Shown here in pieces: positions 48,001 to 62,881 of a stretch of 64,000 nt of DNA. Source of the DNA: Bradymonadia bacterium (lineage in GTDB: Bacteria; Myxococcota_A; Bradymonadia; UBA7976; UBA1532); the NCBI GenBank assembly GCA_046290225.1, contig JBKAGE010000036.1:386979-450978 (forward strand). The letters run 5' to 3'. The position numbers and the translations under genes are program-made. Each line of letters opens with the position of its first letter. Within the stretch, counting starts at the first letter, position 1. The notes below the pieces were generated by a model that made no database searches, was not told the DNA's origin, and worked only from the letters and a program-made list of their open reading frames with translations.

Positions 48001-48169
48001 GACGCTCCATCAAATTCAGCGCTTCTATGCCACCACGGATGACAGTATCGCGTGGACCTTCGGCGACCAGTCCGGTGTACTGAACGTCTCGGAACGCATC
48101 ACCATCCCTGATCTGAACCTGACCGCAGAAGAGCAAGTCTTGATCCTCGAGCGTGGACAACAACCGTGA
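42014..48169 (+). CDS. 2051-aa surface lipoprotein: Gly linker, about 11 Ig-like repeats, DNRLRE-like domain, five MopE-like Asp/Cys repeats, Ig, degenerate alpha/beta-hydrolase-like domain
   Basis: LSLFGC lipobox; D.(T/S)PP, G.N, D..GN Ig motifs; DNTL...ENMG-type domain; DxDGDG...DCND...NP...E...DNDC. Confidence 0.85.
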   Translation: MRSRSSQIPSRLRLLCCVGALSLFGCSALLDPGNDDSESNGDAGTGGSAGGMAGAGGGAGAGARGGNGGTGGTGLTGGQRPEAGELRVVVTSPQEDSATPEGEITVEGRWRSENTLERILVTVGGEDLSTEATLDTESGTWQAQLTLPEPGTYTINARGEDASGAVHTDRRTVTWDMSPPTVIIARPTGNACFADAEVEVCVNATDDHRVSEVRIGGLFAELTLGSEYCAMVPVGPGVQRIPVRVADAAGLEASDEVLFTVDRTPPLVNFSTIPPGTVISQAGDVMALEGDVRDSGCGLSGGVLLIDNLETEFNAEGFFSTTVALTEGAHAVPWRLTDAAENVAMGTLEFTVDRTAPVLALDAEPLPLTAETSVRLTGAVTEAGSGLLALTLNGLPLPLVEASPGLWTVDRAVDLEPGQNHLALVARDGADLEDTLEFDVVSDPNPPRLTIEGVNIIGDEAPRLIAFGTVDDGVEGSGVATVVVNAVEAELDLENNRWRIEGLEIPIGPLEVEVVATDALGNQSAPQRLGLTQDDSPPVIELAVPDTLVECLAGEAREICVVVRDVESELESVTLEGEPMEAHDGDRFCATATLEPGLNTLTVQATNTLGLDDDIVFQIERDDTPPEVMFDRLDDLWLAGANPQGALLTGQVTDVGCGVSAITIGENGESWPLDFVGRFVAPVNLPEGPSELFWRAVDDVGNPVEGRVALQVDDQRPVLEVLSPEVSPFLLIDTVETGVLVRVSDVGVGVDTLEVNGQPLALEPVPGEDGVFLADASQPLLLGLNTLTFVATDRLGQSTERVSEIYMLAEPNPPAVLVNTPVNGACVSDELIELCGDTLVTAFDVASVSIDGDPLPPASINAQGDFCADLDLPEGPATFDIEVTDVLDQSANFPFTLIVDRTPPAFDAVFPPDGTLVPSAPEGFNLTFNLVEGDCDLPGLSQVLVNGVPINSNFEQQYITFIPADAEGEIEVEYQLQDGAANTTTGTLTYTLDLAPPTVELLSPAQLPLSTEEGQVQLLADISDTLSPITEIRLDGEPIPFQQADPTEVVRIDRLLDIPPGGATFTLLVIDASGQTTPTSIQVIRPNDADGDGALETVDCDDQDPNIRPGNPEILRNGIDDDCDVLTIDNPEPDILLHGPTQDNTLREQNEGNMGRLPGLYARFDAPQATMRPMMQFDPVTFTPGLIVEEAILEMTVVSASAESDRTMCVHRLLAPWLEGEAEALDDAERAFSGATWGLRGPGEPWGQPGGDFDPTALDCQSVDRAAGTRVRFDVTEGLFGDGPEVLHGLIFIAQDGEGREDIFHSRESPDEGARPQLQVRVGLDPDYPYKDSDRDGFLLIDDCNDNNPTINPGVEEIINDGRDNDCDPTTPDLVDRDDDGFTIDVDCNDDDPNINPDAVEIRFDRIDNDCNPLTADDPNADEDGDGFAAFRDCNDTDPLVNPDAQEVPGDGIDNDCNAATPDLVDEDNDGFFLPEDCDDTRFSVNPDAVEVVCNGLDDDCNTQTSDFLLDDPAIGAGDGVAAQFELPATFDLSEEQLFSLAMPEFLVTTSPQPPPLYAQDLPPGAQWDPQLDTLTWTPDFTQGGADHSARFVILEGGCETEATVVFRVADDVSPPEPEIVETLRGVGYTLLRVRQTTDNWLDSPIFAGRGIDSIVVIPTLGEDDDPLPVNVQLHDVGADPDENFDANTDAAFVRISPADPDDTMWWGYSSEQTDLGGNPLDAGDAVAPYTARRVIHLLDWVLAQQPEADADRVYLSGVGAGATGAGLIASAFGRHFAAVDAEKPYLIPTQYSVERQNALLSKWGTLDQSSIWDALDLTVSLANNAEARDLFWFSRHGKDDAAARFGGVPPLIEALQLNFMGHFVVWDEGGGPGVADPVLGEGWWSNDWHPIFDSEAFVARAHPWASFADGSANENPGNGGGAPGDPAIAGDTGLNGDIAGAFNRALRWRADTVVDTPERFEIALYVAQDGADAPAEGYPPVGDRVTGGPPVTASVTLHQIQRFYATTDDSIAWTFGDQSGVLNVSERITIPDLNLTAEEQVLILERGQQP

Positions 48170-51100
48170 GCACACAGACCTTCACCTCGATCGCCAGCTT
48201 CACGCGGCGGGCTGTATGGCTGCTCGCGCTCGTCTCGCTGTCGGGCTGCAGCTTTGCTCTGGATCCGTCGAACTGTGACACCTCTGGTGACTGTGATCAG
48301 GCAGGGGCGGTGTGCCTGGACGGCATCTGTGTGGTGCTCGACCCGCCCGACGCAGATCTGAGCGATGCAGGGGCAGATCCCGCTGACGCCTCGGATGCTG
48401 ATCCAGATGCCCCCGATGCAGGTGCTGAGGACGCCCGGGTGCCCACCGATGCCCGGCCAGTCGTCAACGGTGACGGCCCCGAGCTCGCCATCCTCGTGCC
48501 CCTCGAGGGCGCCGAGGTGCCGCAAGCATCAGTGGAATTCATCGGCACCTACGAGAGCGAGGTGCCCCTGACCTCGGTGACCCTCACCCTCGTAGGCGGA
48601 GACACACCGCCGGTCGAGGCCCTGGTGAACGACATCCAGTCGCGATGGTCGGGCTCCATCGACCTCCCTGCACCGGGCACCTACGACATCGACATCGTCG
48701 CCACGGACGAAGCAGGCGGCAAAGCGCTGCTGTGGCGTCGAATCACCTGGGACGACACCCGCCCCACTGTGGCCTTCAGCACCCCCACTGCCGATGCGTG
48801 TGTGCAGGGCCTGCCGGCGCGTATCTGCGTCGACGCGTCGGATCCGGGCGGTCTGGCACCGAACGGGGTCACCATCAACGGCATGATCGCCGATGCTGAA
48901 GGGAACCTTTTCTGCGCCTCGGTCCCCCTCGGCGAGGGCATGCAGACGATCACCACCGAGGCCCGAGATCCCTCGGGGCACGTCGCCTCCGACACCCTGA
49001 CGGTTCAAGTAGATCAGCGCCCGCCAGTGCTCACGCTCCTGACCCCCACGGCGGAAGGCCCCGTGCCGGCCATCGATGGCCGGGTCGAGGTGGAAGGACT
49101 GCTGACCGACGAAGGCTGTGGCATCAGCGAGCTGCGCGTGAACGGCACCACGGTCAACCTGGACGAGACGGGCGGCTTCAGCGTCGACCTGCCCCTCGAC
49201 GCCGGGCCCCAGACGCTGTCCCTCCGAGCGGAAGATCTCGTGGGCAACCCTGTGGCCTTCGATCTACCCGTCATCGTCGACGGGGTGCCTCCGGTGGTTG
49301 AGATCACGGCCCCTGAGGCCGACATGAACCTCACCGCAGAGCCATCGATCATGTTGAGCGCCCGCGTCACAGATGGTGGCTCTGGCATCGATCGCGTCAC
49401 CCTGAACGGTATGCCCATCGAGGGTGAGCCTCTGCCCGAGGGCGGGGTGCAGATCGAGACCGAATACCCTCTGGGTCAGGGCCGCAACGTCATCCAGCTT
49501 CAGGCCATCGACCGCGCTGGTCTGCGGTCCACGGCCAACCTGGAGATCAACGCCGACAGCGTGCCGCCGAACGTCTTCATCGACGATGTCGTCGTGGTCC
49601 GCGGTCCATTGCTCACCTTGACCGTGACAGGCCGCGCCGATGACGGCCCTGAGGGGAACGAGATCACCGAAGTCACCCTCAACGGCCTGCCCGTCGACTT
49701 CGACGCCGAGACGGGTCGCTGGCGCATCGAGGGCTTCGAGGCCTTTGAGGATCCCATCACCCTCACCGCCCGCGCCACCGATGCCCTGGGCAATGTGAGC
49801 CCTCCACAGGTGCTGGTGCTCGATCGCGATCTCACCCCACCAGAGATCAGGCTCACCGACAACGCGCTGCAGCTCGAGTCGTGCACCCGTGACGCCTCGT
49901 TGGACATCTGCGCTCAGGTCACCGACAACGAGAACGATGTGGTGGAGGTGCTGGTGAACGGGGTGCCCAAGAACCTGAGCCCCCAAGGCACGTTCTGCAC
50001 CGACTTCGCCCTCGACCCCGGTGAGAACATCATCGCAATTCAGGCGAGAAACGATGTCGACCTCGAGGGCACCCTGACCCTCAGAGTGATCCGCGATCAG
50101 GTGGCCCCCGAGGTCATCTTCGACTTGCCCGAAGGCGGCTTCATCGACGGCACTTCGGGCGAGGTGACGATTTCCGGCCGGGTAGAAGACGTGGGCTGTG
50201 GCATCACCAACAGGCAAATCGTCTTCGATGGTGAGACGCTGTCCCTCGACGAGCAGAACCGCTTCAGCACCACCCTGCCGGTGGCCATTCAGGGCGTCGG
50301 TGAGGGCCCCAACCGCCTCGACTGGCGCGTGGTGGACGGCGCGGGCAACCCCGCCGCTGACCGGCTACGCCTCGTGGTCGATCTCGACCCCCCCAACCTG
50401 GAGCTGACCACGCCCGTGGCCGACGACACGGTGGCGCTCAACGTCAACCGCCTCGACCTGCTGGCCACTGTCACCGACACCTGGTCCGGCGTCGGCCAGA
50501 TCACCCTCGACGGGGTGCCTGTGGAGCTGGAGGTCCCTCCGGGGAACCAGGGCGTGGTGAACGAGGCGACGATCCGTCAGAGCCTGACGCTGTTCCCGGG
50601 CCTCAACGTCTTCACGTTGAGGCTCATCGACAGCCTGGGCATCTCCACCGAGCAGCAAATCTCGGTTCAGGTGTATCTCGACGACACCCCACCGAGCATC
50701 ACCATCGAGTCGCCGACGCCGAACACCTGCATCAGCGAAGATGCGCCCCAACTGTGCGCTCAAGTGTTGGAGGACAACGCCCCTCTGGGCACAGTCATCG
50801 CCGCCGGACAGGCCCTGGATCCGGCCATGTTCGATGGCAACGGCCGATTCTGTGTGCCCCTGCAGCCCGTCGAAGGCAACCAGACGTTCACCGTGGAGGC
50901 GGAGAACGTCGGGGGCCTCAACGCTCGGGCATCGGTGAGCTTCGAAGTAGACTTCAGCACCCCTCAAGTACAGATCGACGAGCCCGACGTGGAGAACCTC
51001 ACCCCCACTGATGCCCGAGAGGGGCTCGTGGTGAGTGGGGTGGTCACGGACCAGGGCTGTGGTCTGCCCGAAGGCGCCGTCCTCTTCCTCGGGCACCCGG

Positions 51101-52584
51101 AGCGGCTCGAGCCCATCGAGGTGCCCCTCAACCCCGGCGGTGACTTCGAGATCACGCTCGATTTCCAACGGGAAGGCCCGGTGCTGATGCCCTATGAGAT
51201 CTCCGACAACGCCGGAAACGTCTCTCTGGGGCAGCTCTCGGTGTGGCCTGACGAGTCACCACCTGACCTCAATCTGATCATCCCCGAAGCGAATGGCGCC
51301 TCGGTGGGCGCTGGCGAGGTCTCGCTGACCTTCGAGATCATCGATCTCGCTGCGTCGCCCATCACCGAAATCACCATCAACGGTGAGGGGGTGGATCTGG
51401 GCCCTGACGCCGCCACAGGTCGAGTCCTCGTCGAATCCATCCAACCCCTCTCCGTGGGTGAGAACCGGTTCACGATCACCGCGACGGATCAGCTGAACTT
51501 CACCAGCGCCAACGAGATCACCGTGCACTACGATCCGAGTCCTGGTGAGCTCGAGCCCCGGCCCAACCTGCTCAACCCCATCCTCCTTCAGGAAGTAGAG
51601 CGACCCGACTTCTCCCTCTTCGACGCTGTGGCCGTAAGCCCCAACCGGTTGCACGTCGCCGCTGCGTACAAATTCGTAGAAGACGCCGAATATGGCCGCA
51701 GCCGACTGGGCCTCTGGCGACGGGACACCGGCGCCGAGGTCTGGCGCTCTGCAGCCATGGTCTGGAGCGAGGGCTGCGATTTCGTCCCCAACCGGGACGT
51801 CATCATCTGCGCCCATGTGGACTACCCGGACTTGCAAGCCTTCAGCATGTTGGCCTTTGAGACTGAAAACGGCACCGTGATCCACGATGAGCCGGTGCGC
51901 ATCAACCTCGGCGCCACTGAGACACCGCAAATCTTCGACGGCTTCTCGGCACGGGTCTCTCCCGACGGCCAGTGGGCTGCTGCCGCAGCCAGTGGCCCCG
52001 ACGGCTCTCAAGTGATGCTCTTCGCCATCGACTTCCTCGGACGGCCGCGATTCGACGAGTCGCTGCGCTTCGAATTCCTAGGCAACCGCGCCATCGACGA
52101 GGTGGCCTTCGACGCCACCAGCGAGGTGCTCTACGCTACGGACTTCACCGGCCTGGCGATCCACCGCTTCGCCATCGAAGACGGCGTCTGGACCCGGTCG
52201 AACTCCCTGCCTACGGGGGGTCAGGCAGTGGCGGGGCTGGACGTAGATGGCGAAGGCCGCGTCATCGCCAGTGGCTACTTCGCCCAGGCGGTGTACGTCG
52301 TGACCCCTGATCCGGAAGACTTCTCGCAGAGCGCGATCACCACCATCAACGTCACGGGCAAGGGCTACGATCTCTGCGCCGATCGACGCCCAGGGGCTCA
52401 CTGGGCGTGGGCGGTGAGCCAGGATGCCGGAGAAACGCAGGCCATCGACACGGCCACCGGTGAGGTCCTCGCCACCGGTCAGATCACCCCCCACCACACC
52501 GACGGCCTCAGCTACGCCTGTGATCCCATCACCGGCCAGCCCTTCGCCGTCAGCCGCGGCAGCCTCTGGACCTGGGCGCCCTGA
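48166..52584 (+). CDS. 1472-aa surface lipoprotein: Cys-rich N-terminus, Ig-like repeats collinear with the upstream paralog, C-terminal beta-propeller
   Basis: LSGC lipobox; GTGA overlap with upstream stop; AVSPN/SPDG propeller blades. Confidence 0.85.
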   Translation: MSTQTFTSIASFTRRAVWLLALVSLSGCSFALDPSNCDTSGDCDQAGAVCLDGICVVLDPPDADLSDAGADPADASDADPDAPDAGAEDARVPTDARPVVNGDGPELAILVPLEGAEVPQASVEFIGTYESEVPLTSVTLTLVGGDTPPVEALVNDIQSRWSGSIDLPAPGTYDIDIVATDEAGGKALLWRRITWDDTRPTVAFSTPTADACVQGLPARICVDASDPGGLAPNGVTINGMIADAEGNLFCASVPLGEGMQTITTEARDPSGHVASDTLTVQVDQRPPVLTLLTPTAEGPVPAIDGRVEVEGLLTDEGCGISELRVNGTTVNLDETGGFSVDLPLDAGPQTLSLRAEDLVGNPVAFDLPVIVDGVPPVVEITAPEADMNLTAEPSIMLSARVTDGGSGIDRVTLNGMPIEGEPLPEGGVQIETEYPLGQGRNVIQLQAIDRAGLRSTANLEINADSVPPNVFIDDVVVVRGPLLTLTVTGRADDGPEGNEITEVTLNGLPVDFDAETGRWRIEGFEAFEDPITLTARATDALGNVSPPQVLVLDRDLTPPEIRLTDNALQLESCTRDASLDICAQVTDNENDVVEVLVNGVPKNLSPQGTFCTDFALDPGENIIAIQARNDVDLEGTLTLRVIRDQVAPEVIFDLPEGGFIDGTSGEVTISGRVEDVGCGITNRQIVFDGETLSLDEQNRFSTTLPVAIQGVGEGPNRLDWRVVDGAGNPAADRLRLVVDLDPPNLELTTPVADDTVALNVNRLDLLATVTDTWSGVGQITLDGVPVELEVPPGNQGVVNEATIRQSLTLFPGLNVFTLRLIDSLGISTEQQISVQVYLDDTPPSITIESPTPNTCISEDAPQLCAQVLEDNAPLGTVIAAGQALDPAMFDGNGRFCVPLQPVEGNQTFTVEAENVGGLNARASVSFEVDFSTPQVQIDEPDVENLTPTDAREGLVVSGVVTDQGCGLPEGAVLFLGHPERLEPIEVPLNPGGDFEITLDFQREGPVLMPYEISDNAGNVSLGQLSVWPDESPPDLNLIIPEANGASVGAGEVSLTFEIIDLAASPITEITINGEGVDLGPDAATGRVLVESIQPLSVGENRFTITATDQLNFTSANEITVHYDPSPGELEPRPNLLNPILLQEVERPDFSLFDAVAVSPNRLHVAAAYKFVEDAEYGRSRLGLWRRDTGAEVWRSAAMVWSEGCDFVPNRDVIICAHVDYPDLQAFSMLAFETENGTVIHDEPVRINLGATETPQIFDGFSARVSPDGQWAAAAASGPDGSQVMLFAIDFLGRPRFDESLRFEFLGNRAIDEVAFDATSEVLYATDFTGLAIHRFAIEDGVWTRSNSLPTGGQAVAGLDVDGEGRVIASGYFAQAVYVVTPDPEDFSQSAITTINVTGKGYDLCADRRPGAHWAWAVSQDAGETQAIDTATGEVLATGQITPHHTDGLSYACDPITGQPFAVSRGSLWTWAP
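52399..52584 (+). repeat. 186-bp direct repeat copy 1 (3' end of propeller gene)
   Basis: Matches 62696-62881 with 9 mismatches by manual alignment. Confidence 0.9.
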
Positions 52585-52785: not shown

Positions 52786-53058
52786 ATGAACCCCACACCT
52801 GCCGAAAGCCCCTGGGGGCACCTGGCATTGAGCGACAACGGGTTTCTGCTCGACACCCGCACCGGCCGCACCTTCACGTTGAGCAAGACCGGCACCTTCT
52901 TGATGAAGTCGCTGATCAATGGCGCCCCACCTGATCAGCTGCCCGGAGACCTGCTCGCCCACTACGAGGTGGACCAGGAGACTGCGAGTCGCGATGTGGA
53001 GCGGTTCATGTTCCGGGTGAAAGATCTCGGCTTGAGCGCGGCCCGGGAGGAGGGCTGA
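52786..53058 (+). CDS. Stand-alone PqqD-family protein (RiPP recognition element)
   Basis: 90 aa; GFLLDTRTGRTFTLSKTG, L..HYEVD...ASRDVERF...KDLGL; SD GAGGAG. Confidence 0.85.
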   Translation: MNPTPAESPWGHLALSDNGFLLDTRTGRTFTLSKTGTFLMKSLINGAPPDQLPGDLLAHYEVDQETASRDVERFMFRVKDLGLSAAREEG

Positions 53059-54188
53059 TGCTCATGCAGACTGAATCTCTCACCGTCGCCGTCACGGGGC
53101 TCAACGCCACCGACAACCCGGGGCCAGGGGTCCCGGTCCTCCGTGCCCTGCGGGATGGCGCCCGCGAGGTGGTGCCCCTCACCCTCGTGGGCCTCGCCTA
53201 CGACAGCCTGGATCCGGGCTGTTATCTCTCCGACGTCGCGGAGCATGTCTACCTGATGCCCTACCCCTCTCAAGGGGCCGAGGTGCTGTACCAGAGACTG
53301 CTCGACGTCCATCGGCGTACGCCCATCGATGTGTTGATCCCCACCCTCGACGCCGAGCTGCCTGCGTATTTGAAGATCGCCGATCGACTCGCAGCTCTGG
53401 GCATTCACACCTGCCTGCCCACCGAGGCCCAGCTCCAGGCCCGAAGCAAGGCCCAGCTCGCCGATCTGTGCGCCGCCGCTGGTGTTGCCACCCCCAGAAC
53501 GACGACGTTGCTCACCGCCCGGGAGATCGCCGATCTCGATCTCGAATACCCGGTCATGGTGAAGGGCCAGTTCTACGACGCGTACATGGCCTACAGCCCA
53601 GCAGAGGTGACGGGGCACTTCAACCGCATCGCTGCGAAGTGGGGGGTGCCGGTGGTGGTTCAGGAATACGTCGCTGGCCAGGAATTCGACGTTGCCGCCG
53701 TGGGCGATGGCGAAGGTGGCCTTCTCGGTGCAGTGCCCATGCGCAAGATGCAGCTCACGGACAAGGGCAAGGCCTGGGGTGGCATGACCATCGCCGACGC
53801 AGAGCTCGACACCTTCGTCGCCGAGGTCATGGCCACTCTGAAGTGGCGTGGCCCGTGTGAGCTGGAGATTCTGCGCAGCGGCGAGGATGGCACTCTTCAC
53901 CTCATCGAGATCAACCCACGTTGCCCTGCCTGGATCTACCTCAGCGCTGGCGCGAACCGGAACCTGCCCTGGCTGGTGGTGCAGATGGCCCTGGGCTTGA
54001 GCCCTGCCCCCCTTCCCCCGGCCCCACCAGGGGTCATGTTCCTGCGCTACTCCATGGACCAGATCTGTGCGCTGCCCGACTACGCGGCCATGACGACGTA
54101 CGGAGAGCTGCATCGGGGCCCTCTGAGCCGAGCCGACGCCCCAGATCTGCCCACGCCACCCACGCCTGGCGATCACCTGAGGAACTGA
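53058..54188 (+). CDS. ATP-grasp ligase (CarB-like single module)
   Basis: IDVLIPTLDAEL, RSKA, YPVMVKG, VVVQEYVAGQEF, LIEINPR; TGATG overlap with the RRE gene. Confidence 0.88.
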   Translation: MLMQTESLTVAVTGLNATDNPGPGVPVLRALRDGAREVVPLTLVGLAYDSLDPGCYLSDVAEHVYLMPYPSQGAEVLYQRLLDVHRRTPIDVLIPTLDAELPAYLKIADRLAALGIHTCLPTEAQLQARSKAQLADLCAAAGVATPRTTTLLTAREIADLDLEYPVMVKGQFYDAYMAYSPAEVTGHFNRIAAKWGVPVVVQEYVAGQEFDVAAVGDGEGGLLGAVPMRKMQLTDKGKAWGGMTIADAELDTFVAEVMATLKWRGPCELEILRSGEDGTLHLIEINPRCPAWIYLSAGANRNLPWLVVQMALGLSPAPLPPAPPGVMFLRYSMDQICALPDYAAMTTYGELHRGPLSRADAPDLPTPPTPGDHLRN

Positions 54189-54192
54189 GACG

Positions 54193-55542
54193 ATGAGCCG
54201 CAACGCATATGTGCCCCCGACCATCATCGAGCATCAGCGCGGGCTGGCGAACAAGTTCGGTCAGGGCCCCAGCCGCCGCAGTCTGCCCCGCATCGACGGG
54301 ATCGAGGTGGAGGGCCTGCTCGAGCAGTATGGCAGCCCCCTCTTCGTCTTCTCGGAGCACCGGCTGCGCCAGACGTATCGCGAGATCCACCGGGCCTTCG
54401 CGATCCGATATCCCAAGGTGCAATTCGGCTGGTCGTACAAGACCAACTACCTGGACGCGGTCTGTAAAATCTTCCACGAGGAGGGCGCCTGGGCCGAGGT
54501 GGTTTCGGAGGTGGAGTACGGCATGGCCCGACGCCTCGGCGTGCCCGGCGATCAGATCCTGTTCAATGGGCCCTACAAGCCCGAAGAAGCGCTGCGCACG
54601 GCCATTGCCGAAGGGGCCCACATCCACATCGATCATTTCGATGAGCTCTACATGATGGAGCGTCTCGCCGCGGAGGCGGGGCGGGTGGTGCCGGTGACGC
54701 TGCGCCTCAACATGGACACAGGTGTCGTCCCCCGCTGGGATCGATTCGGCTTCAACGCCGACAATGGCGAGGCCATGGACGCCATCCGCAGACTCTACAG
54801 CGGCGGCCACCTGGTGCTCGAGGGGCTGCACAGCCACATCGGCACCTTCATGCTCGACCCCCATGCGTATGGTCGGGCGGCAGCGAAGATCGCGGCCCTG
54901 GCCCTGAAGGCCAGGGCCGCAGTAGGGGCGCGCATCAAGTACATCGATCTCGGGGGCGGCATCGCCTCCCGGGCCACGCTCCACGCTCAGTATGCTCCAG
55001 GGACCGATACCACCCCGCCGGTGGACGACTACGCCGAGTCGATCTGCAGCGCCCTCCTCGCCGCGGGCTTCTCCCACGACGAGTTGCCCACCCTGGTCCT
55101 CGAGACCGGCCGGGCCATGGTGGACGAGGCAGGCTTCCTCATCACTCGAGTGGTGGGCAACAAGCGGCTCTCCACTGGGGCTCGAGCTGTGGTGATCGAT
55201 GCCGGGGTCAATGTGCTCTTCACCTCGTTCTGGTATCGACACGATGTGCTCCCGGTCATCGATCGGGGCGGCATGCTCGAAGAGGCGGTGGTCTATGGGC
55301 CGCTGTGCATGAACATCGACGTGGTGCGCCCCTCTGTGATGTTGCCCCCACTCGAGGCGGGTGATCCGCTGGTGATCCGGCCGGTGGGGGCTTACAACCT
55401 GACTCAGTCCATGCAGTTCATCCGGCTCCGGCCGGCGGCTGTGCTCATCGGTCAGCGCGGTGAGATCGACTTGATTCGGGCGGCAGAAGTCATCGATGAC
55501 GTCAAAGGCCCAGAGCGACTCCCAGCCCGCTTCACTCAGTGA
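54193..55542 (+). CDS. Fold-type III PLP decarboxylase (LysA/ODC-like) with N-terminal extension
   Basis: YGSPLFVF, SYKTN (PLP Lys), FNGP, RFG, HSHIGT, DLGGG, ETGR, GPLC, GAY. Confidence 0.88.
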   Translation: MSRNAYVPPTIIEHQRGLANKFGQGPSRRSLPRIDGIEVEGLLEQYGSPLFVFSEHRLRQTYREIHRAFAIRYPKVQFGWSYKTNYLDAVCKIFHEEGAWAEVVSEVEYGMARRLGVPGDQILFNGPYKPEEALRTAIAEGAHIHIDHFDELYMMERLAAEAGRVVPVTLRLNMDTGVVPRWDRFGFNADNGEAMDAIRRLYSGGHLVLEGLHSHIGTFMLDPHAYGRAAAKIAALALKARAAVGARIKYIDLGGGIASRATLHAQYAPGTDTTPPVDDYAESICSALLAAGFSHDELPTLVLETGRAMVDEAGFLITRVVGNKRLSTGARAVVIDAGVNVLFTSFWYRHDVLPVIDRGGMLEEAVVYGPLCMNIDVVRPSVMLPPLEAGDPLVIRPVGAYNLTQSMQFIRLRPAAVLIGQRGEIDLIRAAEVIDDVKGPERLPARFTQ

Positions 55543-55663: not shown

Positions 55664-57754
55664 ATGGACACATTGCTCAAGCCCTACGCCCAGGTGCTCT
55701 TCGGCGACAGCCGCTGGGGCGCCATCGTGGCGGTGCTGGCGACGTTCGTGACCCCCACTCACGGCCTCCTGGGGCTGCTGTGTGTCGCGCTCACCGTGGG
55801 ATGGGCCCGTCTGCTGGGCCGAACCGCCGAGGAGATCAAGGCCACGGCCTATGGGGTCAATGGCCTGCTCGTGGGTCTCGCCCTCGGGGTGTACTACCCC
55901 TTGTCCGGTGCCTTGGTGATCCTCACGGTGCTGATCACCCTGCTCACCGCCATCCTCACGGCGGTGCTCACGGGCCGGGCCGCCCGTGGTGTAGGGGTGC
56001 CGATCCTGAGTCTGCCCTTCGTGCTGGCCACCTGGGCTGCGCTGCTCGCCGCTCGCCGGTTGAGCGCCCTCGAGCTCAAAGCCCTCGACGTCACGACGCC
56101 GCTTCTCCACTGGCCGGGCCTCTTCGAGGGTCATGACGTGATCTCGATCTATGTGAAGGCCATGGGGGCTTGCTTCTTTCAGGTGGAGGCGCTCTCTGGC
56201 CTGCTCGTGGTGGTAGCCCTCTTGCTCATCTCCCGCTGGTCATTCCTGCTGTCGATCCTCGGCTTCGCCACTGGCTGGCTGACATACGACATACTCGGCG
56301 GCGCCCCAGGTGATCTCACCACCCAGATGATCGGGTTCAACTTCATCCTCGCGGCCATCGCCACCGGCGGGGTGTACACCCTGCTCAGCCCGGCGAGTCT
56401 GGGTCTCGCGGCAGTGAGCGGGGCCCTGGCGGCGATGTTGAGCGCCGCGGTGCTGTCGATGCTGGCCCCCATCGGCCTGCCGCCTCTGGCCTTGCCCTTC
56501 ATTCTGGCCACACAGCTGCTGGTCTTCGCCTTGATCACCGCGGTGGCTCTGGGGCCTCTGAGGCGCACTCAAGGGGTACCCTCGACACCGGAGCGCAACC
56601 TCACCCGAGCCCAGGCAAAGGCCCGCCGCTACCCCGATCCGGCGCTGCCTCTGGTGCAGCTGCCGGTCATGGGCCGCTGGCGGGTGAGCCAGGGACATCA
56701 CGGCCCTCACACCCACCAGGGCCTGTGGGCCCATGCCTGGGATTTCGAAGTGGTGGATCACCCCACCTTCAATGCGCCGGTGGTGGCCCCCATGGCCGGA
56801 CAGGTGGTGAAGGTGGTGGACAGCGTAGAGGACAACCCCATCGGCGAAGTGAACACGGCCCAGAACTGGGGCAACCTGGTCATCCTCTGGCATCACGGGC
56901 AGGTCTATTCGGCGCTGTGTCACCTCAAGCAAGGCAGCATCACCGTCACCGAGGGGCAGTACGTCACCCGAGGGCAGACCATTGGCAAGGTGGGCAACTC
57001 GGGTCGCTCACCGGTGCCCCATCTGCACCTGCAACTCCAGAGTCGCCCTGAGGTGGGCGCCCCCACCCTCTATGGTGAGCTGTTGCATTATGTCGTCGAG
57101 GCTGAAGATGGCGCTCCGCGATATGAGACCTATGGGGTGCCCGAAGAAGGCTGTGTACTCAGCGCCCTGCAGGTGAGCGCCGAGGTCAGAGAGGCCCTCA
57201 CGCTGGCCCCGGACCTCACTTTTCACTGGGCCATCTCGGGGCCGGGCCTCTCACCTCGGGAAGAACGGTGGCGCTCCATCATCGATCCCCTCGGCGCCCG
57301 ACGTCTCGAGCAAGTAGAGGGTGAAGCAGTGCTGGCCACCGCGGGCTTCTTCGCTGACGAGCAATATTTGACGTTCCTCGACTATGACGGTGACGGCGAT
57401 GCGCTGTTGGGATGGTTGTCCCTCGGCTGTCCTCGGGTGCCGTACACCGCGCAGCGTGATCTGACCTGGTCCGATCGCCCCGAGGCGAGCCCGTGGATGG
57501 GCCTGCCGGGGCGCCTGGCCCATGAGTTGATGATGCCCTTCGCCGACGTCGGTGGTGTGCACACCTCCAGCCGCTCCAGCACCCGTATGGGCGAAGTCGT
57601 CGTCACCACCACGCTCCAATGGCCCCGTGGCGTGGCGAAGAGCGGACGACGCCCTGATGAAATCGAGGTGGTGTGGACCACCGGTCAGGGCCCTACAGCC
57701 ATCACGCTCCGCCGCGACGGCGCCGTGGTGCTCGAAGGGGTGAGACGATCATGA
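55664..57754 (+). CDS. Urea-transporter-family membrane domain fused to M23 peptidase-like domain and unknown C-terminal domain
   Basis: Two-fold repeat QVLF/GVNG/LPF and ACFF/GFN/LPF; then HAWDF, PVVAP..G.V, GNLV...H, HLK, GNSGRS..PHLHLQ. Confidence 0.82.
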   Translation: MDTLLKPYAQVLFGDSRWGAIVAVLATFVTPTHGLLGLLCVALTVGWARLLGRTAEEIKATAYGVNGLLVGLALGVYYPLSGALVILTVLITLLTAILTAVLTGRAARGVGVPILSLPFVLATWAALLAARRLSALELKALDVTTPLLHWPGLFEGHDVISIYVKAMGACFFQVEALSGLLVVVALLLISRWSFLLSILGFATGWLTYDILGGAPGDLTTQMIGFNFILAAIATGGVYTLLSPASLGLAAVSGALAAMLSAAVLSMLAPIGLPPLALPFILATQLLVFALITAVALGPLRRTQGVPSTPERNLTRAQAKARRYPDPALPLVQLPVMGRWRVSQGHHGPHTHQGLWAHAWDFEVVDHPTFNAPVVAPMAGQVVKVVDSVEDNPIGEVNTAQNWGNLVILWHHGQVYSALCHLKQGSITVTEGQYVTRGQTIGKVGNSGRSPVPHLHLQLQSRPEVGAPTLYGELLHYVVEAEDGAPRYETYGVPEEGCVLSALQVSAEVREALTLAPDLTFHWAISGPGLSPREERWRSIIDPLGARRLEQVEGEAVLATAGFFADEQYLTFLDYDGDGDALLGWLSLGCPRVPYTAQRDLTWSDRPEASPWMGLPGRLAHELMMPFADVGGVHTSSRSSTRMGEVVVTTTLQWPRGVAKSGRRPDEIEVVWTTGQGPTAITLRRDGAVVLEGVRRS

Positions 57755-59130
57755 CGTGGCCCTTGATGACCGCCCTCGTGCTGATGCTGGCCCCCAACCC
57801 TACCCATGAATCAGTGTGGCAGAAGAGCGTTGCCATGGAGACTCAAGGGGACTTCGCCGGTGCCTTGAAGCTCATTGAGGCGCGCTGGCTGGCAGAGCCC
57901 ACCCTCCCCCTGGCCCTGCGCCGTGGCTGGCTGTTGATGAAACTCGAACAGCCCGCTCAGGCGGTTCGAGCGTATGGCGACGCTCTGACCCTGGCGCCCA
58001 CCTCTGAAGATGCGCTCTTGGGTCTCCAGTGGGCCCACTTGAGCCAGTCGGACTGGTCTGGCGCCGCCCAGGCAGGGCGTCAGGCCTTGGAAGTCGCACC
58101 CATGAACGCCTGGGCTACCGGGCGCCAGGGGCTCGCGCTCTTCATGCTCGGGGACTACGACGAGGCGCGCACGCTCTATGTAAAGGCCCTCGCCGCCCAA
58201 CCAGACAATGGAGAGTTTCACCTGGGCATGGGGTTCACGCTCAAGGCCCTCGGTGAAGTCGAGGCGAGCGCCACGGCCTGCAATCACGCCCGCCGGTTGA
58301 TGCCCGAGGATCCCCGGATCCCCGAATGCCTCGCCTCAACGCCCGAGGGCCCTCAGGTCTGGGGCGCTGCCTCGAGTTCGGTGTTGTTCTACAGCGGAGC
58401 ACTGGTCGGTGAAGAGCTCGTGGCCTATACCGTGAGCGCCGGCGCGGCGCTGAGCCCCAATTGGCTCATCTGGGCTGGGGGCAACGCGAGCACCCTCGCC
58501 CGAAGCGAAGACTCTGGGGGTGAGCCCTACAACCAGGTGGCGCCCATCGCAGGCATCGGCTGGCGAGACGACGGATGGCGCGCAGGTGTTTCGGTGGTGC
58601 CTTACATCTTCGCCAATGAAGAGGAGGTCGAAGGCACCAACGTGTTTCTCGGCCACGTGGGCCGGGCCCCAGCGCGACCTGGCGCTCTCGGTGCAGATCT
58701 CGACGTCGCATGGACCCGTAGCCCTGGCGACGATGTCATCCAGCTCGATCCCATGCTCCATTGGGCCGTCACCTCCCGCCTCACCCTGGGTCTTGGTCCC
58801 GAGATCCAGCTGTTTCCAGAAGAAAGCGGAGGGGTGGCCATACTGCTCAGCGGACACCTCGACCTCGACTGGCGACTCCACCCCCAATTTGGCGTCGGGC
58901 TCCTGGGCTATGCAGGCCCTCGCCGCTACCCCGTGACCGCCGATGGCCTCTCCATCTGGACCGGGGGCGAGCGATTCACCGCAGGGGTCAACGCTCGACT
59001 GAGCTGGCAGCCACTGCCCTGGCTCGAGGCTCGGCTGGCCATCGTCCATGACACAGGCGACGAACAATATGGCGTCGACGAAGCGTTCAGCATCACGGGG
59101 GGTACCCTCGGGCTGAGCGTGAGCTGGTAA
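57751..59130 (+). CDS. Exported TPR protein with C-terminal outer-membrane beta-barrel
   Basis: ATGA overlap; signal-like N-terminus; TPR helices; amphipathic strands ending GLSVSW. Confidence 0.7.
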   Translation: MTWPLMTALVLMLAPNPTHESVWQKSVAMETQGDFAGALKLIEARWLAEPTLPLALRRGWLLMKLEQPAQAVRAYGDALTLAPTSEDALLGLQWAHLSQSDWSGAAQAGRQALEVAPMNAWATGRQGLALFMLGDYDEARTLYVKALAAQPDNGEFHLGMGFTLKALGEVEASATACNHARRLMPEDPRIPECLASTPEGPQVWGAASSSVLFYSGALVGEELVAYTVSAGAALSPNWLIWAGGNASTLARSEDSGGEPYNQVAPIAGIGWRDDGWRAGVSVVPYIFANEEEVEGTNVFLGHVGRAPARPGALGADLDVAWTRSPGDDVIQLDPMLHWAVTSRLTLGLGPEIQLFPEESGGVAILLSGHLDLDWRLHPQFGVGLLGYAGPRRYPVTADGLSIWTGGERFTAGVNARLSWQPLPWLEARLAIVHDTGDEQYGVDEAFSITGGTLGLSVSW

Positions 59131-59179
59131 GGTGATGGCCATGTGCACAGATCAGACAGTTCTCAAAAGGATGCCCAAC

Positions 59180-59818
59180 ATGCGTACGACCACAGCCTTT
59201 CTCTCTGCAATGTGGGTGAGCATCTTCGCCTTGGCCGCCCACAGCGCCCCACCCAAAGACACCGGCACGCTCTTCTCCACCTCGTTCACCAAAGAAGCTC
59301 AGGGCCGAATTGACGATGCAGTGCGGCCCATGCTCAAGGTGATCAAACAAGATCCCAAGCACTACGTGGCCCACTTGAGGGCAGGCTGGCTCTACTATCA
59401 CGGCAATCGCTATGACGAGTCGGTGAGATACTACGAGAAGGCCGTCGCCCTCTCTCCCAAGGCCCTCGAGCCCAAGCTCGGCCTGATGCTGCCCCTGATG
59501 GCCGCCAAACGCTGGAAGGCCGCAGAGCGTGTCGGGCAGCAGATTCTGAAGGTGGCGCCTCATCAGTACACCGCCTTGAGCCGGCTGGCCTATGTGGCCT
59601 TCTTGCAAGGGCGGTACACCGAAGCCGAGAAGCGCTACAAGATGGTGCTGGAGAACTACCCCAGCGACATCGAGATGATGTTGGGCCTCGCCTGGACATA
59701 TACCCGCCAGGGGCGTAAGGGAGAGGCCCGTACGATGTTTGAGAACGTGCTGGCCATACGTCCTGAAAACGGCTCGGCAAAATCGGGTCTGTCCACCCTC
59801 GGCAACGGCCCCAGTTGA
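59180..59818 (+). CDS. Secreted TPR protein
   Basis: Signal peptide ending AHS-A; TPR repeats (LRAGWLYY, YEKAVALSP, LGLAWTY). Confidence 0.8.
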   Translation: MRTTTAFLSAMWVSIFALAAHSAPPKDTGTLFSTSFTKEAQGRIDDAVRPMLKVIKQDPKHYVAHLRAGWLYYHGNRYDESVRYYEKAVALSPKALEPKLGLMLPLMAAKRWKAAERVGQQILKVAPHQYTALSRLAYVAFLQGRYTEAEKRYKMVLENYPSDIEMMLGLAWTYTRQGRKGEARTMFENVLAIRPENGSAKSGLSTLGNGPS

Positions 59819-59923: not shown

Positions 59924-62881
59924 ATGTTCTCCCGCTCGCTGGGCATTGTATGCCTGGCGCTCTCTCCAGCCTCGTCGTTCGCACAATCTGAGGATCCACC
60001 AGACCTTGTTCTGGAAGCCTCTGCGGACAGCACGTTGATGCCCGAAGCAGAGATCAACCTTGGCCTCGATCCGGTGCTCGATGCCACGCTGGGGCCTAAC
60101 GGCAACGGTCGGCGGCCGATCGTGCAGTTCCCGGCATGGTCGCCTCCTGAAGGACTCGGGGTCGCCGAGGCCACGCTGAGTCTGTTCTACAGTCAAGCAG
60201 CATATGGAGAAGGCGAGCGCACCTTGTGTGTGCATCGTGTGCTCGAGCCGTGGGACGAGGGCCTCGGCCGGCATCGCTGGGACGCCGTAGGCGGCGCTCA
60301 AGGTGTTTCATGGATTCGGAACACTACTGACACAGAGTGGAACACCCCCGGTGGTGACATCGATCCCCAGCCCGCATCGTGCCGACTGATTTCCTCGGAC
60401 GACGCAGGGCAGCGCATCGACTTTGACGTCACTGACGCGAGGGAGGCGCCATATGGCTATGTGTTGATCGCCAGCGACATGGCCTACCGCAGCGATCGGT
60501 TCGCCACCCGAGAGCACGCCGATCCCAACGCTCGGCCACAGCTCACGCTCCGGTGGGGACCTTTCGTGGAGGAGCCTCCTCCTGATCCCGGCGATGGCGA
60601 CGATGATGATCCGACTGATCCACCAGAGCTCGGACCTGGCGATCTGCTGGTGGTGGCAGCGGCTGCGGACACCACGCTGCGCAACGGCAACGAGATCAAC
60701 ATGGGGGCCGCGGCGCTTCTGTACACCGAGGCCCGCAACGGCGACGCGCCTCAGCGCCCTCTCGTCACCTTCGAGGCGTGGTCTGTACCCGAGACGCTCG
60801 CCGTGTCATCCGCACAGATCTCACTGTTTCATCTGGCGAGCGCCTATGGCGACGCCGAGCGGACGCTCTGTCTGCACCGCGTGTTGGAGCCCTGGGTAGA
60901 GGGCGAAGGTCAGCATCACTGGGATCGGATCCTCGGCGACACAGGCACTTCGTGGTTGCGCACTGACACCGACACCCTCTGGAGCACCCCTGGTGGAGCC
61001 TTCGACGAGCAGGCGACGGCCTGTGCGGTACTCGACGCCGAGGGCGGCCGCCGTGTCACCTTTGATGTCTCCTCAGACGTCTACTGGGCCGAGTACGGCT
61101 ACATCGTCCTTGCTCAAGGCAGCCCCTACCGTCAGGACCAGCTCGTCGCCCGAGACCATCCCGACGCCACACTACACCCCCAGCTCGAGCTCACGCTCGC
61201 CGACGCAGGCGAAGTGACGACCCCCGAGCCACCTGAAGGGCCACCAGATCCTCCAGCTGAGGAGGATGATCCTGACCTCATCGTCGTGGATGTATCCGCA
61301 GACACCACGCTGCATGCTGGCAACGAGATCAACAATGGCCTCGATGGTGAGCTGAGGCTCGATTACCAGAATGGCCTGAGCAACCGTCGGCCCATTTTGA
61401 GTGCAGGCCTCTGGCCTGACTCGGAGCGTAACCTCGAGCAGGTCACTCTCGAGGTCTTTCATACACAGGTGTCGTATGCCGACGACCCGCGGACTGTGTG
61501 TGTCTACACGGTCCAATCCTCGTGGGTAGAGGGTCTCGGCACGCACATCTGGGACAGCATTCAAGGTCACACGGGCGCCACCTGGCTCCGACGAGACGAG
61601 GGCCTGCTCTGGGCAACACCAGGGGGAGAGCTCGCAGCAGAGCCTCTCGACTGCGCTGTCGTCGATGTGCCCGGCGAATGGATCAGCTTCGACGTCACCA
61701 CCGATCCCAACCGCGGCGAGTTTGGCTATGCCCTCGTAGCCCTCGACGTGCCCTACCGCCACGATCGCTTCACCAGCAAAGACGGCACTGCAACTCAGCG
61801 ACCCCAGCTGGCCTTCCAGTACACCCCTGAGGATGACGCCAGAGATCCTGGCCCTCTTGCTCCGCGCACCGCCTTTCAGGGGCCTCTGGCGCTCGGCGAC
61901 GATCCCGCACAGAGCCTCATGTGGCACGACGCCCTCGCCGTGAGCCCCGACGGGATACACGTCGCAGTGGCAGCGAAAGATGTTCAGGGTGGCAGCGTGG
62001 GCGCGCTCTCGCTCTGGCATCGGGAGACGGGCGCTCTGGTGTGGCGTTCGGATACGCCGGTCTGGAGTGAGGGCTGCGACTTCACCCCCGAAGGCGCCTT
62101 CATCCTCTGCGCACATGTGGACTACCCTGATCTCTCGGCCTTCAGCTTGCTGATCTTCTCCGCCGCTGACGGCAGCCTCACCTCATCAGTCGATGTGACC
62201 CCTGTGGTGGGCACCTTCGGCTCTGTGAATCGATGGGATGGCTTCGCCGCTTCGGCCTCTGGTGATGGTCAGTGGGCAGCATCCGTTGTCACAGGCCCTG
62301 AAGGCGGAGAGCTCATGATCTTCAGCCTCGATGGTCAGGGCCAGGGCGTGCTCCGCCCGGAGGATCGGATAGTCCTCCCAGGGAACCGCCTGTTGGACGA
62401 GGTGGCCTTCAGCCCCGACAGCCAGAGCCTCTACGCCTCCGACTTCGTGGGCAGCTCAGTCCTGCGCTTCGATCTCGTAGAGGGTATGTGGCAGCTCGCT
62501 GGGGAGCGGGCCATGCCGAGCGCCATGGCCGGTCTCGACGTCGACGGAGATGGTCGAGTCGTCGTGAGCGGATACTTCGACAGATCGGTGCACGTACTCA
62601 CCCCTGACGCCGACGATTTCACCCAGAGCGCGCTGCTCTCTATCGCCGTGACGGGCAAGAGCTACGATGTCTGCGCAGATTCACGCCCTGGAGCCCACTG
62701 GGCGTGGGCGGTGAGCCAGGATGCAGGAGAGACGCAGGCCATCGACACGGCCACCGGCGAGGTCCTCGCCAACGGTCAGATCACCCCCCACCACACCGAT
62801 GGCCTCAGCTACGCCTGTGATCCCATCACCGGCCAGCCCTTCGCCGTCAGCCGCGGCAACCTCTGGACCTGGCTCCCCTGA
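59924..62881 (+). CDS. Secreted protein with three DNRLRE-like domains and C-terminal beta-propeller
   Basis: Signal peptide SFA-Q; three D(S/T)TL...EIN.G...RP...C...W.EG...W.TPGG...C...FDV...GY...YR.D repeats; propeller paralogous to 48166 gene. Confidence 0.85.
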   Translation: MFSRSLGIVCLALSPASSFAQSEDPPDLVLEASADSTLMPEAEINLGLDPVLDATLGPNGNGRRPIVQFPAWSPPEGLGVAEATLSLFYSQAAYGEGERTLCVHRVLEPWDEGLGRHRWDAVGGAQGVSWIRNTTDTEWNTPGGDIDPQPASCRLISSDDAGQRIDFDVTDAREAPYGYVLIASDMAYRSDRFATREHADPNARPQLTLRWGPFVEEPPPDPGDGDDDDPTDPPELGPGDLLVVAAAADTTLRNGNEINMGAAALLYTEARNGDAPQRPLVTFEAWSVPETLAVSSAQISLFHLASAYGDAERTLCLHRVLEPWVEGEGQHHWDRILGDTGTSWLRTDTDTLWSTPGGAFDEQATACAVLDAEGGRRVTFDVSSDVYWAEYGYIVLAQGSPYRQDQLVARDHPDATLHPQLELTLADAGEVTTPEPPEGPPDPPAEEDDPDLIVVDVSADTTLHAGNEINNGLDGELRLDYQNGLSNRRPILSAGLWPDSERNLEQVTLEVFHTQVSYADDPRTVCVYTVQSSWVEGLGTHIWDSIQGHTGATWLRRDEGLLWATPGGELAAEPLDCAVVDVPGEWISFDVTTDPNRGEFGYALVALDVPYRHDRFTSKDGTATQRPQLAFQYTPEDDARDPGPLAPRTAFQGPLALGDDPAQSLMWHDALAVSPDGIHVAVAAKDVQGGSVGALSLWHRETGALVWRSDTPVWSEGCDFTPEGAFILCAHVDYPDLSAFSLLIFSAADGSLTSSVDVTPVVGTFGSVNRWDGFAASASGDGQWAASVVTGPEGGELMIFSLDGQGQGVLRPEDRIVLPGNRLLDEVAFSPDSQSLYASDFVGSSVLRFDLVEGMWQLAGERAMPSAMAGLDVDGDGRVVVSGYFDRSVHVLTPDADDFTQSALLSIAVTGKSYDVCADSRPGAHWAWAVSQDAGETQAIDTATGEVLANGQITPHHTDGLSYACDPITGQPFAVSRGNLWTWLP
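62696..62881 (+). repeat. 186-bp direct repeat copy 2
   Basis: About 95% identical to 52399-52584. Confidence 0.9.

Follow-up and report, generated by a model that had tools for sequence, protein, structure and literature searches.

Gene content and organization of the locus

The window, i.e. the whole stretch of 64,000 nucleotides that was analyzed, contains a cassette of closely spaced genes, all on the same (+) strand, encoding an RRE, an ATP-grasp ligase, a decarboxylase, a urea transporter-M23 protein and two TPR proteins. The RRE (52786..53058) is a discrete protein of the PqqD family resembling lasso B1 proteins (PF05402, E 1e-10); it has D70 and F74, and Ser replaces the Asn of the family at position 33. 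The following gene (53058..54188) encodes a PRK12767/2pn1-like ATP-grasp ligase with the catalytic residues K131, K169, E270, E284, N286 and R288 and an N-terminal loop containing D19. Four bases after its stop codon, and with an AGGA about 10 bases upstream, the ATG at 54193 starts the 449-residue ORF of a fold-type III PLP decarboxylase related to FslC/FigC (54193..55542; PF02784 and PF00278), with the PLP lysine K83 and with H215, R307 and C372. A wrong start codon was ruled out for this gene, since the homologous start recurs among loci. The encoded N-terminus is MSRNAYVPPTIIEHQRGLANKFGQG. Its residues 1-30 (54193..54282) form a tail comprising a candidate RRE recognition motif, Y6-x-x-P9-x-I11, and a second conserved block, G17-x-x-N20-K21-F22-G23 (54241..54261), whose lysine codon is at 54253-54255, exactly 15 residues past the Tyr. 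The initial annotation had read YVPPTI at 54208-54225 in the enzyme N-terminus, and both coordinates and reading frame agree. Downstream lies a urea-transporter-family membrane domain fused to an M23 peptidase (55664..57754; PF03253, E 8e-50, and PF01551, E 2.5e-16). Its ORF opens at 55496, the start codon at 55664 being uncertain, and the M23 domain has H352, D361, H421, H454 and H456. Two genes with TPR Pfam matches, both conserved among loci, complete the cassette: the first, conserved in position (57751..59130), encodes a protein whose C-terminal region looks like an outer-membrane barrel, and the product of the second (59132..59818, probable start 59180) is probably exported.

The cassette is flanked by large genes at 48166-52584 and 59924-62881, which both end in a near-identical propeller-like stretch of about 65 residues. 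The cassette may thus have been inserted between two paralogous ends or duplicated together with the flanking genes. The genes at 42014-48169 and 48166-52584 encode two very large acidic proteins, probably exported; the former product has repeated Cys/Asp-rich motifs and the latter many Ig-like repeats (Pfam).

A GTDB genome scan returned at least 600 stretches, of which 574 are relatives, and the best 80 of these at least 574 relatives were taken. They are distributed over Bacteroidota (55), Myxococcota (13) and five other phyla (6), with 6 unplaced. ATP-grasp and fold-III decarboxylase genes are neighbours in 79 of these best 80 loci, the exception being cut by a contig end, and regulator-like ORF families recur upstream of the cassette in 10-21 of the 80. 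In some loci (L148:141-2613 and others) a sigma-54 response regulator and a histidine kinase are encoded upstream. Among 301 genomes of the window's phylum, 36 (its own included) match with E < 1e-125, the next matches being at 1e-50, and the family was found in 16 of 401 and 5 of 251 genomes of two more samples of this phylum. The cassette is widespread, occurring in Myxococcota, Bacteroidota, Spirochaetota and others.

Identity of the decarboxylase

Databases name these tail-bearing decarboxylases LysA, and the initial annotation spoke of a LysA-like enzyme. This description holds for the fold and for the residues K83, H215, R307 and C372, which are retained in 133-134 of 134 decarboxylases, but not for an identity as LysA. 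The score against TIGR01048 (LysA) is 211 for a cutoff of 297.9, and C372 is followed by M373 (133/134), giving a Cys-Met after GPL as in FslC, versus Cys-Glu in LysA. On these grounds, and with another LysA-like domain present in the window's genome (within an 867-residue ORF that is probably an aspartate kinase fusion), a LysA role was ruled out. By sequence and fold, the closest solved decarboxylase is FslC (PDB 7kh2, E 3e-56), and the score against the FslC model NF041039 is 203 for a cutoff of 500. According to the portion of PMC7857480 that was consulted, a substrate loop sets specificity in this decarboxylase family, and relatives use conjugates, namely citryl-ornithine, a microcin C intermediate and carrier-bound glutamate. 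The loop sequence of the present enzyme points to a conjugated substrate. Another group of fold-III decarboxylases was also encountered (L192, L193, L228 and L229; P0095, P0108, P0113, P0135, P0142 and P0147). Its N-terminal extension, 40-55 residues long and both basic and hydrophobic, differs from the tail described here; L229 has an ATP-grasp neighbour and no RRE match.

The N-terminal tail and its conserved motif

Homology to decarboxylases starts at residue 64 for Pfam, at residue 34 for TIGR01048 and at residue 28 for the best PDB match. An AlphaFold monomer model based on 100 homologues gave mean pLDDT values of 72, 49 and 65 for residues 1-10, 11-20 and 21-30, with residues 14-21 below 50, and values of 97-98 from residue 31 onward. 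The low pLDDT of the tail versus that of the core and the start of homology at residues 28-34 place these approximately 30 residues outside the decarboxylase fold, in line with the extension ahead of a LysA-like core recognized in the initial annotation; the possibility that the tail is part of the fold is ruled out for the monomer by the pLDDT values.

The motif [YWF]xxPx[ILVM] is found within the first 30 residues of all 81 proteins formed by the best 80 of at least 574 relatives plus the window, with Tyr and Ile/Leu at their positions in 77 of the 81. An RRE is encoded upstream in 77 of these best 80 loci, and in the three others the DNA ends 44-1,121 bases before the gene. Further loci comprised 30 from the 301 genomes of the window's phylum and, from 557 metagenome relatives retrieved with a divergent query, the best 80; six loci were refetched at greater length. 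Neither the window's own locus nor the ten outgroup loci are counted in the 195-locus set, which includes some repeats of one genome. Conservation among homologous clusters had been set beforehand as a refuting test for the initial annotation, and the motif, as [YWF]xx[PM]x[ILVMFR], was found in 192 of the 195 loci versus none of 12 distant decarboxylase loci, i.e. ten ordinary LysA-like loci and two nearer outgroups, which have neither the motif nor an RRE match. An RRE is located upstream in 168 of the 192 motif loci; for the remaining 24, the upstream DNA extends over no more than 1,830 bases. In the two further phylum samples the motif is present in 18 of 19 family loci (one cut by a contig end), with an RRE within a 1.5-kb flank in 14 of the 19; three of these 19 loci repeat earlier ones.

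Removal of sequences more than 80% identical left 133 non-redundant loci. The first motif position is Tyr in 121 of them, Phe in 8 and Trp in 4, Pro is found in 131 and Ile/Leu in 129. Counted from the Tyr without any gap, Gly is at +11 in 104, Asn at +14 in 91 and Lys at +15 in 118 of the 133 loci. The conservation of Y6 (0.89) and P9 (0.95) is at the level of the top 16-21% of core columns, and the mean for the linker of residues 24-33 is only 0.25. As background, 269 of 11,487 short ORFs (2.3%) contain the motif, and other cassette proteins carry it at background level (0-7 of 112-136 per protein). As judged from these alignments, the YxxPxI motif of the decarboxylase tail is real and under selection.

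The RRE and its putative ligand

The RRE gene encodes a stand-alone PqqD-family protein of about 90 residues (PF05402, 42.3 bits for a cutoff of 23.4), with TbiB1, TfuB1, PbaB1, LppB and PqqD as PDB matches. Its sequence is closest to discrete lasso-type B1 proteins. Lasso PqqD models score below cutoff on the window RRE, and neither a B2 transglutaminase-like protease nor an asparagine-synthetase-like cyclase was found among the six cassette proteins or among the ORF families common to the best 80 of at least 574 relatives. W/Y/LxxP motifs are common to lasso, PQQ and sactipeptide RREs in the consulted portion of PMC12710340, so that the motif alone does not make a lasso cluster.

In the LppB-leader crystal structure, the leader Tyr makes a hydrogen bond to D70, N33 holds the kink at the Pro, on which F74 packs, and an N33A change nearly abolishes leader binding (PMC13381572, consulted in part). 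The profile of the present RRE family aligns gap-free to LppB (9x8z) at D70, N33 and F74, for which we infer an offset of 18 in the numbering of the PDB chain, and conservation in the family is 0.91 for D70, 0.83 for N33 and 0.89 for F74. Position 33 is Asn in 133 and Ser in 17 of 153 RREs, and the window's own RRE has Ser33. When RRE and tail were paired by locus and mutual information was computed over 2,442 pairs, the highest-ranking inter-protein pair was Y6 of the tail and D70 of the RRE (z 4.8). Asp70 is found in 136 of 138 Tyr loci versus 2 of 14 Phe/Trp loci, and it is lost with all nine Phe tails. These raw counts are inflated by kinship among the loci: with correction for the tree there are six independent contrasts, of which 3-4 agree and none is opposed (sign test p 0.125-0.25, not significant). 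What gives this pair its weight is that the top covarying pair is a contact known from crystals. The first strand of the RRE (A14, S16, D17 and G19) covaries with tail residues K21-G23. A covariation between ligase and RRE (N16 with S16/A14, z 5.1-5.4) was discounted, being probably due to shared descent of divergent subtypes.

The motif-less loci among the 195 are L158, L118 and L119. L158 (5753-7308) has a frameshift between tail and core, with the tail present in another frame, which is either a sequencing error or an inactivation. In L118 (with 6 kb upstream and 7 kb downstream) and L119, motif, RRE, ligase and channel are all missing, and the common neighbours of the two loci indicate that this was probably a single loss event. 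Their decarboxylases (L118:5749-7185 and L119:3646-4419) derive from the cassette and have no tail; they are located near MoaA and NAD kinase genes, with an M20 peptidase near that of L119 and the queuosine genes queA-tgt-queF near that of L118. A tree of 115 rows places the motif in one clade of 37 rows (support 86, not starred), apart from 3 of the 78 rows outside; 14 of the 27 database representatives inside the clade have it. Among the 13 representatives without the motif as called, one (P0018) is a late start call, as it is 64-68% identical to loci having the motif just upstream of the called start. The presence and absence of motif and RRE thus go together, which supports the pairing of RRE and tail. 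We consider it very probable, on these comparative grounds, that the discrete RRE binds the motif of the decarboxylase tail.

A second PqqD-like gene in the window's genome (G000:C35:371557-371844) is unrelated to the cassette. In L171 (1493-3733) and L146 (2060-3835) a long open frame (747 residues in L171) has the RRE domain at its C-terminus, corresponding either to a true fusion or to a late start.

Search for a separate precursor

FzmZ, a YxxP precursor of 21-22 residues, was missed by standard tools (PMC13622209, consulted in part). The present screening covered some 2 to 8 kb on either side of the cassette. A motif scan of 11,487 short ORFs revealed no separate conserved precursor. With a profile of the tail, the only matches under E 0.2 among 79,489 locus ORFs of at least 12 residues were decarboxylases and the frameshifted tail of L158, and the window's genome has no other match under E 0.7. 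All-against-all clustering, which extends down to the 21-22 residues of FzmZ, was applied to 6,478 short ORFs lying no more than 2 kb from the cassette in 130 loci and gave no conserved family, the largest one spanning 6 loci and being without the motif. A separate conserved precursor, named at the outset as an observation that would count against the initial annotation, was thus not found in the locus flanks or in the window's genome. The proposal that the missing precursor is the enzyme's own N-terminus appears well supported by the conservation of the tail, its joint gain and loss with the RRE, the retained Tyr/Pro pocket residues D70 and F74, the Asp70-Tyr6 covariation and this absence of a separate precursor.

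Comparison with known systems

The lasso RREs TfuB1/FusB1 (6jx3), TbiB1 (5v1u) and PbaB1 (9x90), as well as LppB (9x8z), share with the present protein the RRE family, the size and the pocket residues corresponding to D70 and F74, and they recognize leaders of the same motif type ([Y/W]xxPx[L/V/I]). In contrast to these systems, the motif here is the tail of a 449-residue enzyme and not part of a short precursor, and the conserved ORFs include no B2 protease, lasso cyclase or precursor gene. In the butirosin pathway BtrJ is the ATP-grasp partner. The BtrI/BtrJ/BtrK system likewise has an ATP-grasp protein beside a fold-III decarboxylase, BtrK, which is among the matches of our decarboxylase and uses carrier-tethered glutamate (PMC7857480, consulted in part). 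However, no acyl carrier protein and no small conserved protein besides the RRE is found among the conserved ORFs of the cassette. RRE and enzyme tail would replace the carrier, and the channel-fused hydrolase and the barrel have no counterpart in that pathway. With the rhizoferrin enzymes FslA/FslC (FigA/FigC) the cassette shares the Cys-Met substrate loop, the closest solved fold and a ligate-then-decarboxylate logic. It differs by its ligase, an ATP-grasp protein and not an NIS synthetase (none in the cassette), and by the FslC model score given above; no RRE partner of FslC is described in the consulted portion of PMC7857480. Fosfazinomycin biosynthesis (FzmZ/FzmA/FzmT) also combines a YxxP scaffold peptide of 21-22 residues, a discrete RRE and an ATP-grasp enzyme, but FzmZ is a separate peptide that is modified at its C-terminus and consumed, as reported in the part of PMC13622209 consulted. 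The ATP-grasp protein of the cassette has, among the PDB matches listed, 2pn1, carbamoyl-phosphate synthetase, biotin carboxylases and (L-)amino acid ligases as nearest relatives, and no RimK or graspetide model is among its Pfam/NCBIfam matches. In borosins, precursor and methyltransferase form one chain, the C-terminal core being modified by the fused enzyme and cut off; to our knowledge, no RRE is involved. The present decarboxylase resembles borosins in combining a precursor-like part and an enzyme in one chain, this part being N-terminal here and accompanied by an RRE. Tested by its sequence features, the cassette is not a lasso cluster, a graspetide/RimK system, a LysA or FslC locus, a BtrI/J/K-type carrier system or, within the flanks screened, a RiPP cluster with a separate precursor.

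In a full-text literature search, mostly of non-subscription journals, neither the cassette nor the binding of an RRE to the tail of an enzyme was found described. The main text of the RRE-Finder papers, as far as consulted (PMC7470986 and PMC12710340), contains neither 'decarboxylase' nor 'urea', and one supplementary file of PMC12710340 gave no match; the large data sets of both papers may list these RREs. PMC12579266 proved a false lead as a description of the cassette. The recognition code is known, and this search gave no published instance of a working enzyme that carries it on its tail. RREs serve as a class-independent handle for RiPP clusters, with the assumption that a small precursor is nearby. 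If the present interpretation is true, an enzyme-tail ligand would explain part of the orphan RREs, recognition motifs should also be sought on neighbouring enzymes, and an RRE-leader pair would serve as a docking or carrier device. A cassette now labelled lysA plus urea transporter can be re-read in this light.

Possible roles of the proposed RRE docking

The initial annotation had left two uses for the RRE: docking the ATP-grasp enzyme to modify the tail, e.g. near NKFG, or acting as an adaptor for a ligase-decarboxylase complex. Its interpretation is upheld in part, the N-terminus being the probable ligand of the RRE, and the evidence leans slightly towards presentation of the NKFG block to the ligase. 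In the scheme that we tentatively favour, short of an even chance, the RRE would present the tail to the ligase, and an acyl group on Lys21 would be decarboxylated, cut off and exported. The cleft between beta3 and alpha3 of the RRE would, in all probability, grip Y6-x-x-P9-x-I11 as lasso B1 proteins grip leaders, with Asp70 hydrogen-bonded to Tyr6. The NKFG block, at its fixed distance of 15 residues, would thereby be positioned at the ATP-grasp enzyme, which may acylate the Lys21 amine with an amino acid via the side-chain carboxyl. By analogy with BtrK and FslC, the tethered amino acid could then move to the PLP site and lose its alpha-carboxyl. Cleavage of the product from the tail may be the task of the amide-cleaving domain that the channel protein would bear at its cytoplasmic end (M23, or a sirtuin in the second subtype), and would free the tail for the next round. 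The small product would exit via the channel and the TPR/barrel proteins. In this scheme the tail would be a reusable carrier and not a consumed RiPP precursor. That the cassette represents a new kind of assembly line, with a leader and a one-lysine carrier within the N-terminus of a working enzyme, a channel-fused hydrolase releasing into export and a recycled tail, is possible but doubtful.

A modified lysine is supported by the Lys at exactly +15 in 118 of 133 loci, without gaps and in a flexible stretch, and also by the channel partner: in 13 of 133 loci the channel carries SIR2 (sirtuin) instead of M23. Sirtuins are acyl-lysine deacylases that need NAD and cannot cut a peptide backbone, and urea transporters end in the cytoplasm, which would put the hydrolase in the compartment of the ligase. 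The substrate of the channel-fused hydrolase is probably the amide made by the ligase. The full set of M23 zinc ligands is present in 82 of 89 cases, most of the others appearing to be cut short. The SIR2-subtype loci are L111, L113, L116, L125, L129, L146, L155, L171 and five more; 7 of the 13 have two ATP-grasp domains, and in this subtype the ATP-grasp domains are fused or split (one being degenerate in L129) and a large TPR gene is located upstream. Residue 19 of the ATP-grasp loop is Asp in 138 of 140 Lys-bearing loci versus 1 of 13 Lys-less loci. The D19-K21 score (z 4.2 among 11,385 pairs) is near chance expectation, the covariation not being significant because the lysine changes just three times on the tree (two to three independent contrasts, p 0.5-1). 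K21 is regarded as a candidate acylation site or ligase contact. A natural ATP-grasp-decarboxylase fusion exists in L154 (487-3123) and P0006, which are 60% identical over 864 residues. Its linker of about 80 residues is of low complexity, the internal YxxPxI is kept and an RRE is encoded upstream, although tethering is redundant there, which speaks for the carrier function. No channel gene is found in the 7 kb downstream of the L154 fusion, where Ser/Thr kinases are encoded instead. Several observations speak against the favoured scheme: the lysine is absent in 12 of 133 loci, which rules out a universal modified lysine; distant members retain YxxP but show drift in the NKFG block; the fusion proteins have Arg at +15; the window RRE has Ser33 where Asn is nearly essential in LppB; and L117 has the motif without ligase or RRE in 1.5 kb upstream.

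The main rival to this scheme, which we regard as unlikely but serious, is that the RRE only serves to hold tail and ligase, thereby building or activating a complex of ligase and decarboxylase that acts on free small molecules, ligation preceding decarboxylation as for FigA/FigC, with NKFG as a second docking patch that is never modified. All the evidence for RRE-tail docking applies here too, and loci without the lysine but with intact enzymes, the greater persistence of YxxP, the existence of a ligase-decarboxylase fusion and the affinity of the ligase to small-molecule ATP-grasps (2pn1, biotin carboxylase, L-amino acid ligases) fit well, as does a contact role for the RRE first strand covarying with K21-G23. 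Such an adaptor leaves unexplained the channel-fused amide hydrolase, especially the sirtuin, and the gap-free spacing to K21, and the fusion would not need its RRE and motif (one lineage). Two unrelated amide-cleaving domains in the same channel slot could also reflect a switch, in which the RRE-guided ligase sets a regulatory acyl mark on the tail, the decarboxylase uses a free substrate, and the M23 or sirtuin domain erases the mark in response to urea, ammonia or an amine sensed by the channel. Enzyme-fused ammonium channels are indeed known as sensors, and the lysine and covariation evidence would count here as for a carrier. Nevertheless such a switch seems quite improbable to us, considering the decarboxylase loop, which points to a conjugated substrate that the ligase would supply, the TPR/barrel genes suggesting export, and the lysine-less loci.

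Two further explanations concern the ligand itself. It is very unlikely that the RRE binds something else, a precursor located elsewhere or the ligase only, with the tail motif serving, for example, a decarboxylase oligomer. The screen reached the stated flanks, the AlphaFold model is a monomer and 13 of 27 clade representatives have no motif as called, all of which leaves room for such a ligand, but no short-ORF family is conserved, the tail profile matches no non-decarboxylase in the loci (bar L158) or the genome at the thresholds given, and Asp70 covaries with Tyr6. A true RiPP, with the tail modified, cleaved from the enzyme by M23 and exported as a peptide, is least to be expected. The tail up to NKFG has about 22 residues, the size of the YxxP precursor FzmZ (PMC13622209, consulted in part), and a peptidase and an export route are present in the cassette; yet one product would be obtained per 449-residue enzyme, the motif is kept when internal to the fusion, a sirtuin, unable to cut the backbone, replaces M23, and residues 24-33 are poorly conserved.

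A natural control for the carrier scheme is provided by the lysine-less clade (L124, L145 and others). The lysine-less loci keep the ATP-grasp catalytic residues in 11 of 11 and the M23 zinc ligands in 6 of 7 scorable cases. The clade comprises L124, L127, L133, L138, L145, L151, L168 and L172, and its ligase loop reads H-x-G-E/D-N-P-Q-P-G.
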